DNA from: Escherichia coli | GTDB lineage: Bacteria > Pseudomonadota > Gammaproteobacteria > Enterobacterales > Enterobacteriaceae | DNA length: 64,000 bases | NCBI RefSeq assembly: GCF_003334765.1 | Contig: NZ_QOWT01000004.1 | Strand: one strand, 5' to 3' | Shown here: positions 2,055 to 2,244 of the stretch, piece by piece | Layout: the number at the start of each line of letters is the position of its first letter | How positions within the stretch are numbered: the first letter of the stretch is position 1 | Made by a program: the position numbers and the translations under genes | Notes under the pieces: model-generated | Seen by the model: the letters and a program-made list of their open reading frames with translations, nothing else | What the model was told of the DNA's origin: nothing | Databases searched by the model: none

Positions 2055-2195
2055 TAGGCGGATAAGGCATTTGTGCGCAGATGCCTGATGCGACGCTTGC
2101 GCGTCTTATCATGCCTACAATCAGTGCGGGTTTGGTAGGCTGGATAAGGCGTTCACGCCGCATCCGGCGATCGTGCACTGATGCCTGATGCAAAT
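2055..2195. repeat. REP/BIME cluster (two palindromic units) in the efeB-phoH intergenic region
   Basis: Motifs gcctgatgcgacgcttgcgcgtcttatcatgcctaca and ggataaggcgttcacgccgcatccggc, typical of E. coli repetitive extragenic palindromes. Confidence 0.7.
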
Positions 2196-2225
2196 CCTGC
2201 TGAAAGCACACAGCTTTTTTCATCA

Positions 2226-2244
2226 CTGTCATCACTCTGTCATC
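2226..2244 (+). promoter_or_regulatory. Pho box (PhoB binding site) upstream of phoH
   Basis: CTGTCATCACTCTGTCATC: two 7-bp CTGTCAT direct repeats separated by 4 bp, upstream of the phoH ORF. Confidence 0.6.

Follow-up and report, generated by a model that had tools for sequence, protein, structure and literature searches.

The 64-kb window, by which we mean the whole stretch of Escherichia coli DNA that was analysed, carries efeB followed by phoH, and the spacer between these two genes holds a cluster of REP units and, beyond it, the Pho box of phoH (Table 1). Positions 1-7401 of the window match 1082600-1090000 of NC_000913.3 (E. coli K-12 MG1655) without differences and the remainder is 99.98% identical to MG1655; IS3D (MG1655 1094245-1095502) is absent from the window, so that past window position 11641 the MG1655 coordinate equals the window coordinate plus about 1083865. 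The K-12 record marks efeU, the first gene of efeUOB, as a pseudogene, and the operon is therefore defective in K-12. Regulation of efeUOB responds to acid and iron and runs via Fur and CpxR.

The RefSeq feature table of NC_000913.3 lists no repeat feature in the efeB-phoH spacer. EcoCyc and the GenBank K-12 record carry REP annotations, and the REP and BIME elements of K-12 have been known for decades and are catalogued, the efeB-phoH cluster being of an already known kind. REP annotation by EcoCyc receives a passing mention in PMC12306157.

Table 1. Coordinates of the features discussed in the text (window positions).
Feature	Position	Strand	Basis or remark
efeB ORF	777-2048	+	b1019 counterpart in NC_000913.3
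efeB stop codon TAA	2046-2048	+	ORF list and sequence
y REP remnant (5' part, TAGGCGGATAAGGC)	2055-2068	+	complete y in AZ167, AF22, E69 and E. whittamii
Head-to-head linker, y remnant to z2	2069-2081	+	aligns to naRNA4 linker positions; second copy 100 bp downstream, 2170-2181
Intact z2 REP	2082-2118	-	1 edit in 37 against the z2 consensus
S-type linker AATCAGTGCGGGTTTG, 16 bp, between facing GTAG ends	2119-2134	.	sequence
Intact y REP, GTAG at 2135-2138	2135-2169	+	3 edits against the y consensus
Second head-to-head linker and truncated z2 head (TGCCTGATGC, 2182-2191)	2170-2191	+	second copy of the 100-bp direct repeat
Conserved non-REP spacer (AAATCCTGCTGAAAGCACACAGCTTTTTTCATCA), BIME to Pho box	2192-2225	+	isolated substitutions among the E. 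coli alleles examined
phoH Pho box CTGTCAT CACT CTGTCAT	2226-2243	+	sequence; published PhoB ChIP-seq
phoH start	2393	+	K-12 annotation
BIME-1, opgH-yceK	29551-29650		z1 29551-29580 (-), L linker, y 29616-29650 (+); consensus scan
BIME-1-like pair, flgF-flgG	50721-50820		degenerate z1-like unit 50721-50749 (-, 7 edits), L-like linker, y 50786-50820 (+, 2 edits)
y-like REP and REP-head palindrome, rluC-yceF	62064-62140		y-like REP 62064-62097 (+), 6 edits; palindrome 62112-62140

On the promoter side, the Pho box consists of two perfect CTGTCAT direct repeats with N4 between them and an 11-bp spacing, and a published PhoB ChIP-seq peak is centred at 1084845 (window 2246) with the motif TGTCATCACTCTGTCATC, phoH expression being PhoB-dependent (Fitzgerald et al. 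2023, PMC10294691). The tandem CTGTCAT box that an earlier note on this DNA had placed upstream of phoH is thus real, a textbook site confirmed by ChIP-seq. That note had also put the cluster about 30 bp upstream of the box, which agrees well with the 33-34 bp separating the box from the end of REP-derived sequence at ~2191-2192; between the last intact REP and the box there are 56 bp.

Structure and class of the REP cluster

Both strands were scanned by bit-vector edit distance (≤8 edits) against the E. coli K-12 set of REP consensus sequences in Table 1 of Nunvar et al. 2010 (PMC2817692), which revealed 11 raw matches, compared with 0-2 in first-order Markov simulations of the window. REP motifs exceeded expectation in dinucleotide shuffles of the window as well, with 18 heads observed and 6.8 expected and with 7 tails observed and 0.5 expected, and 0 of 100 shuffles reached either observed count. 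Positions 2055-2192 are a genuine REP cluster of the BIME-2 type, situated in the 3' UTR of efeB and made up of two intact and two truncated units. The two REP units that the earlier note had recognised at 2055-2195 are right for the intact z2 and y, both of which align to the consensus (1 and 3 edits), and the two truncated units are to be added to them. Two of the y edits fall at variable (lower-case) consensus positions and the third is a missing terminal A.

The intact z2 and y are each imperfect palindromes of 30-40 nt that match the consensus and have GTAG at the palindrome foot (the z2 GTAG, being on the - strand, reads CTAC at 2115-2118 on the + strand), and internal mismatches occur in both predicted hairpins. 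A GTAG 5' of the palindrome foot and a mismatch or bulge in the stem are described traits of REPs (PMC3333891). The cluster is also extragenic, between efeB and phoH, and its unit is dispersed across the genome, with the 88-bp z2-S-y unit occurring in at least 36 places per genome in 5426 of 5426 complete E. coli genomes. As RNA of the + strand, the z2 hairpin has a predicted energy of -14.8 kcal/mol (z = -3.3) and the y hairpin one of -18.9 kcal/mol (z = -3.6), and the y remnant together with the z2 head forms a chimeric hairpin at 2059-2092 (-15.8 kcal/mol, z = -3.7).

BIME-2 elements are composed of alternating y and z2 units with a short linker, in tandem copies whose number varies (Ton-Hoang et al., PMC3333891; nomenclature of Gilson, Bachellier and Hofnung). 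The efeB-phoH cluster shares with them the alternation of y and z2 in inverse orientation, here z2(-) and then y(+), the short 16-bp linker from GTAG to GTAG that contains no IHF core, the tandem 100-bp period, the strain-variable copy number and the extragenic position in a 3' UTR. The BIME-2 period is visible in a direct repeat of 42 nt, the two copies of which (2059-2100 and 2159-2200, 71% identity) are set 100 bp apart. What sets the K-12 copy apart from BIME-2 is its decay, as it retains a single full y/z2 pair with a truncated y and a truncated z2 at its sides, and some E. coli lineages hold a BIME-1-like z1+L+y arrangement at this locus instead.

BIME-1 or RIP elements, of which the opgH-yceK cluster in the same window is an example, have a y REP and the inverted-pair layout in common with the efeB-phoH cluster, but they pair y with z1 across a long L linker of ~35 bp that holds an IHF core (WATCAANNNNTTR), whereas the cluster described here pairs y with z2 across only 16 bp and is free of an IHF core. 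That core consensus is absent from 2049-2225, and for this reason we reject IHF binding at the cluster, which had been put forward in the earlier note; BIME-2 is the class associated with cleavage by gyrase (PMC6379681) and not with IHF.

Variation within Escherichia and in other genera

A 351-base query over the spacer region gave 1727 of 5453 records at ≥99% identity and 1382 at 80-90%, and no other part of the region varies as much as the efeB-phoH spacer. Counts of intact REPs in the sampled alleles form a series. O145:H28 RM13514 has none, its sequence being that of K-12 minus one 100-bp period with the junction inside the repeated ATGCCTGATG; MS145-7 has one; K-12, E. albertii and Escherichia sp. 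E1V33 have two; AZ167 and AF22, from an identity band of ~88% that includes ST131, have three; E69 has five; and E. whittamii has seven. In related alleles the y(+) z2(-) y(+) alternation continues for up to seven units. A z1-like unit followed by a long linker and y is present in F344, 200164 and ECOD1, and these alleles begin differently after the efeB stop. AZ167 and AF22 have unrelated letters in place of the segment 2170-2191. This series agrees with the strain-variable copy number described for BIME-2 (PMC3333891), and it shows that the efeB-phoH BIME gains and loses 100-bp periods via recombination between its own repeats.

The promoter side of the spacer is nearly fixed in E. coli. The stretch that begins with AATCCTGCTGAAAGCACACAGCTTTTTTCAT and includes the Pho box shows a few substitutions at most in all E. 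coli alleles examined, and E. coli alleles with no intact REP have no change in the Pho box and hardly any in the flank; E. albertii departs from this near-invariance of the promoter-proximal sequence and Pho box. Because the REP number changes, from 0 to 7 in Escherichia, next to a constant Pho box with constant flanks, the alleles show that the BIME is independent of the phoH promoter. A functional tie to the PhoB promoter, near which the earlier note had suggested that gyrase or IHF could bind, is thus not supported, and the link of the BIME to phosphate control is positional only.

Comparing 80 PhoH-encoding loci, with one genome per species, we found efeB-phoH synteny conserved almost throughout the sampled Enterobacteriaceae. 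Most of the Enterobacteriaceae loci that were scanned have a Pho-box-like site 435-445 nt upstream of the short phoH start, and this position relative to phoH (~440 nt from the short start) is also kept in genera without REPs. Measured from the efeB stop, the Pho box is as close as ~50 nt in Yokenella and Enterobacter and as far as 400 nt in E. whittamii. E. coli-type REP motifs are found mainly in Escherichia, with single head or tail matches (≤2 mismatches) also in Pseudocitrobacter and Kluyvera georgiana and isolated head matches (≤2 mismatches) in several Enterobacter and Pseudescherichia loci. In Pseudocitrobacter, Kluyvera and Pluralibacter UBA7423 the spacer contains REPs of types peculiar to these genera. 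The efeB-phoH BIME arose in the Escherichia lineage.

In the Enterobacteriaceae other than Escherichia, a plain hairpin is what usually comes after efeB. Where the spacer is short, this is a canonical terminator a few bases past efeB and adjoining the Pho box, as in 12 of 13 Enterobacter loci and also in Yokenella, Lelliottia, Phytobacter and Pluralibacter gergoviae. The hairpin of most Citrobacter and Kosakonia loci is GC-rich but its T tract is weak, and a canonical terminator is therefore not universal among the relatives. In an Escherichia lineage without efeUOB, putP is followed by a canonical terminator and then by the phoH promoter. The intrinsic terminator of efeB in Enterobacter, Yokenella and Lelliottia matches the BIME in position, starting a few nucleotides past the efeB stop and ending just before the Pho box. 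It is a single GC-rich hairpin with a T tract, 25-30 nt long and of unique sequence, whereas the Escherichia element belongs to a repeated, expandable family and is without a T tract.

3' ends, RNA structure and proposed role

Our consensus scan found no intrinsic terminator in 1900-2500, and a second scan under equal criteria was likewise negative for the stretch from the efeB stop to the Pho box. We rejected the T6 run at 2214-2219 as a terminator tract, as the structure before it is not significant (local fold of 2170-2222, z = -0.07). Globally, the region folds into one hairpin of ~160 nt in which z2 is paired to y and 2049-2057 to 2200-2208 (-82.6 kcal/mol, z = -6.3). We set this giant hairpin aside as a special structure because it is the trivial outcome of inverted REPs, and its weak outer stem, rich in AU and GU, does not persist in alleles such as F344.

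Published Term-seq data place no 3' end at efeB or in the efeB-phoH spacer in two condition sheets, in which 1085072 is the only 3' end listed between ~1078854 and 1092367, and no sheet names a 3' end to efeB, a gene that is nearly silent in LB (33 reads per 800 nt; Adams et al. 2021). A Rho-termination call of the same study lies at 1084619 (window 2020), where reads upstream and downstream number 33 and 77 without bicyclomycin and 54 and 413 with it. Because the downstream gain with bicyclomycin (77 to 413) exceeds the upstream coverage (54), we infer that most of this gain must start at or after the phoH promoter and not stem from efeB read-through, and we rejected the call as evidence of REP-linked termination.

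We consider it quite probable that the efeB-phoH cluster is a mobile, copy-unstable and decayed BIME-2 of the efeUOB 3' UTR, likely acting as a 3'-end element and not as part of the phoH promoter. By analogy, the hairpins likely form the 3' end of efeUOB mRNA, or a Rho-linked substitute for a terminator, because Escherichia has no other terminator here and because the terminator of its relatives sits at the equal position. In efeUOB transcripts, the REP hairpins, at -15 to -19 kcal/mol apiece, would serve as the 3'-end structure of the mRNA and would block 3'-to-5' exonucleases on it, and together with Rho they would limit transcription into phoH, as a terminator hairpin does there in several Enterobacteriaceae. 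The first hairpin, 10 nt past the efeB stop, may slightly lower EfeB translation by stalling terminating ribosomes, and on DNA the y REP would be a candidate gyrase site. Insulation of phoH from efeB read-through, an idea of the earlier note, is plausible on the same analogy, and we expect no effects specific to phosphate control. Any function of the BIME would have to be dispensable, given natural alleles with 0 (O145:H28 RM13514) or 1 (MS145-7) intact REP. REPs of the malE-malF type reportedly stabilise mRNA and are associated with Rho-dependent 3' ends, in work credited to Newbury in 1987 and Espeli in 2001; like the efeB cluster, they are stable hairpins right past a stop codon with no U tract after them, and the tie between the two is one that we infer. 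Genome-wide, stable REP hairpins have been found to act as exonuclease barriers, with Rho terminating downstream of them (Dar and Sorek 2018, PMC6061677).

It is possible, if somewhat doubtful, that the cluster is a neutral passenger, selfish or drifting REP DNA in a permissive spacer that has no meaningful effect on efeB or phoH. The spread of REP number at the locus (0-7) and the truncation of half of the K-12 units would fit such drift, as would the link of REPs to a dedicated transposase-like enzyme and their strain-variable copies (PMC3333891), and the spacer looks like a permissive landing site in that Pseudocitrobacter, Kluyvera and Pluralibacter UBA7423 have independently gained REPs of their own there. 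Yet Escherichia has no other terminator-like structure after efeB, so that on transcription the hairpins would set the RNA 3' end, and the general behaviour of stable REP hairpins as exonuclease barriers (PMC6061677) likewise speaks against neutrality. We think it unlikely that the main effect is translational, with the hairpin 10 nt past the efeB stop stalling terminating ribosomes and lowering EfeB via tmRNA. Reduced translation has been reported for REPs within 15 nt of a stop codon (<16 nt; Liang et al. 2015, as cited in PMC12306157), the efeB stop ends at 2048 with the first stem beginning at 2059, and a y-type first unit or remnant begins 5-6 nt past the stop in every Escherichia allele that has one. 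The first K-12 unit is, however, a decayed chimera and not a true REP, and the terminator hairpins of other genera lie equally near the efeB stop, so that this proximity may simply reflect a compact 3' end.

Tuning of the phoH promoter, 33-56 bp away, through gyrase or IHF, supercoiling or DNA bending appears very unlikely. A subset of BIME-2 elements shows enriched gyrase cleavage, with y preferred over z2, independently of transcription (PMC6379681), and the last y REP, where there is one, always lies 53-64 bp from the Pho box. This spacing nevertheless varies by 11 bp among alleles, the cluster has no IHF core consensus, the Pho box keeps an equal position in genera without REPs and remains identical in E. 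coli alleles with no intact REP, and the supplementary text of the gyrase study (PMC6379681) gave no hit for the efeB-phoH locus by name. More improbable still is that REP number acts as a lineage-specific dial, either of leakage of the acid- and iron-regulated efeUOB into phoH or of gyrase-set supercoiling at the PhoB promoter; were this so, E. coli lineages with 0, 2, 3 and 5 REPs would couple iron and acid stress to PhoH expression unequally.

We give almost no credence to the cluster encoding a REP-derived, naRNA4-type ncRNA that acts with HU to organise the nucleoid. The Rfam naRNA4 model (RF02564) does align, at 2057-2115 with 36.4 bits and at 2138-2227 with 38.5 bits, and naRNA4, modelled on REP325, resembles the cluster in its y-linker-z2 unit, with both cluster halves aligning end to end. 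Both scores nevertheless fall below the gathering score of 59.5 because each half is without one of the two hairpins, the first having 26 model positions of the y hairpin replaced by 7 nt and the second having z2 as a 5' arm only. We accordingly rejected a known RNA family for the cluster, all naRNA4 matches being below the gathering score. No promoter was found for such an RNA, and the two Term-seq condition sheets described above likewise argue against it.

The meaning of the cluster is small, as it is an ordinary element that indicates no new mechanism. Its comparative value lies in a clean allelic series of 0-7 REPs, together with a BIME-1-like alternative at the same locus, and in the fact that the BIME occupies the place taken by a plain efeB terminator in several other genera. 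These two properties make the locus a convenient natural test bed for REP copy number against 3'-end formation and read-through.

Other REP clusters in the window

The three other REP clusters that the earlier note had reported are real and their coordinates accurate by our consensus scan, which found no further REPs in the 64-kb window at ≤8 edits. Their placement between operons, also asserted there, stood except at 50721-50823, where the flgF-flgG cluster sits inside the same-strand flgB-flgJ gene run, which we take to be a single operon. In the opgH-yceK cluster, a textbook BIME-1, the z1 unit has 0 edits relative to a working z1 consensus and the y unit has 2 edits, and the L linker of ~35 bp carries an IHF core, AATCAATAAATTG, at 29591-29603 (-). 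Rfam ES036/CssrF matches this linker above its gathering score. Around the cluster at 62064-62140, rluC and yceF are convergent.

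The phoH start and a putative leader

Annotation of phoH differs in length, with 354 aa in the K-12 annotation versus 262 aa assigned by PGAP in other E. coli, such that the PGAP-type start falls at window position 2669 and the additional N-terminal stretch of the K-12 annotation spans 2393-2668. Among 74 related loci, only 45 have an uninterrupted reading frame through these 92 codons, and the median amino-acid identity of the extension is 38%, versus 92-99% for the PhoH core. Because the extension is so often interrupted and so poorly conserved, it may not be coding sequence but a leader of some 400 nt, as judged from these sequence comparisons. 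The Term-seq study by Adams et al. 2021 places a reproducible RNA 3' end at MG1655 1085072 (+), which is window position 2473 and lies 80 nt inside the annotated phoH ORF, and describes a bicyclomycin-sensitive region close by. Taken together, these data are suggestive of premature termination by Rho in the leader of phoH. At the other end of the gene, a strong antisense match to the Rfam family Ysr251, an antisense sRNA of Yersinia, probably reflects conserved phoH coding sequence.

The phoH upstream region in related loci

Among the 80 PhoH-encoding loci (one genome per species), that of E. albertii (L013) keeps a K-12-like BIME-2 upstream of phoH; the stretch from there to the phoH promoter differs in sequence, and the Pho box is reduced to its downstream half only (CTGTCATCTTTCC). 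Escherichia sp. MOD1-EC7003 (L009) lacks efeUOB upstream of phoH, and there one finds the end of an ORF that we take, by eye from its C-terminal sequence, to be putP-like; between it and phoH come first a canonical terminator and next one half of a Pho box. The record CACSKA010000011.1 (L015), titled Chryseobacterium sp. 18061, also contains an efeB-phoH locus of the Enterobacteriaceae type, its PhoH at 95% identity, and this genome is likely mislabelled or contaminated.

Other REP-derived elements and differences from MG1655

The earlier note had placed the remaining REP clusters between operons, which does not hold for the flgF-flgG pair, as its position is inside a same-strand gene run. The L-like linker of this pair carries an IHF core with one mismatch (AATCGATAAATTG). 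The ES036 (CssrF) family, which matched a BIME-1 linker, is in effect a model of linkers of this type. The palindrome, at a distance of 6 nt from the stop codon of yceF, has no GTAG tail, and we therefore regard it as a REP-derived hairpin, not a REP.

IS3D of MG1655 (1094245-1095502, between dgcT and ymdE) is absent from the window (junction 11640-11641), and the remainder differs by a handful of substitutions, so the source is a K-12-like strain rather than MG1655 itself. The tRNA gene adjoining the tandem repeat is serX in MG1655, and the repeat itself gave three Rfam RtT RNA matches, barely over threshold.

Features located in the window
Feature	Position	Strand	Remarks
Ysr251 match	3259-3452	-	189 bits; antisense to phoH 3' end
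Perfect 181-bp tandem repeat, 3.4 copies, adjoining tRNA gene (- strand)	13096-13718 and 13703-13787		
ES036 (CssrF) sRNA family match (Rfam)	29573-29615	-	L linker of opgH-yceK BIME-1; above gathering score
BIME-1-like REP pair	50721-50820		Between flgF and flgG, within flgB-flgJ run
Perfect palindrome GCCGGATG-N11-CATCCGGC	62112-62140		REP head and its own complement
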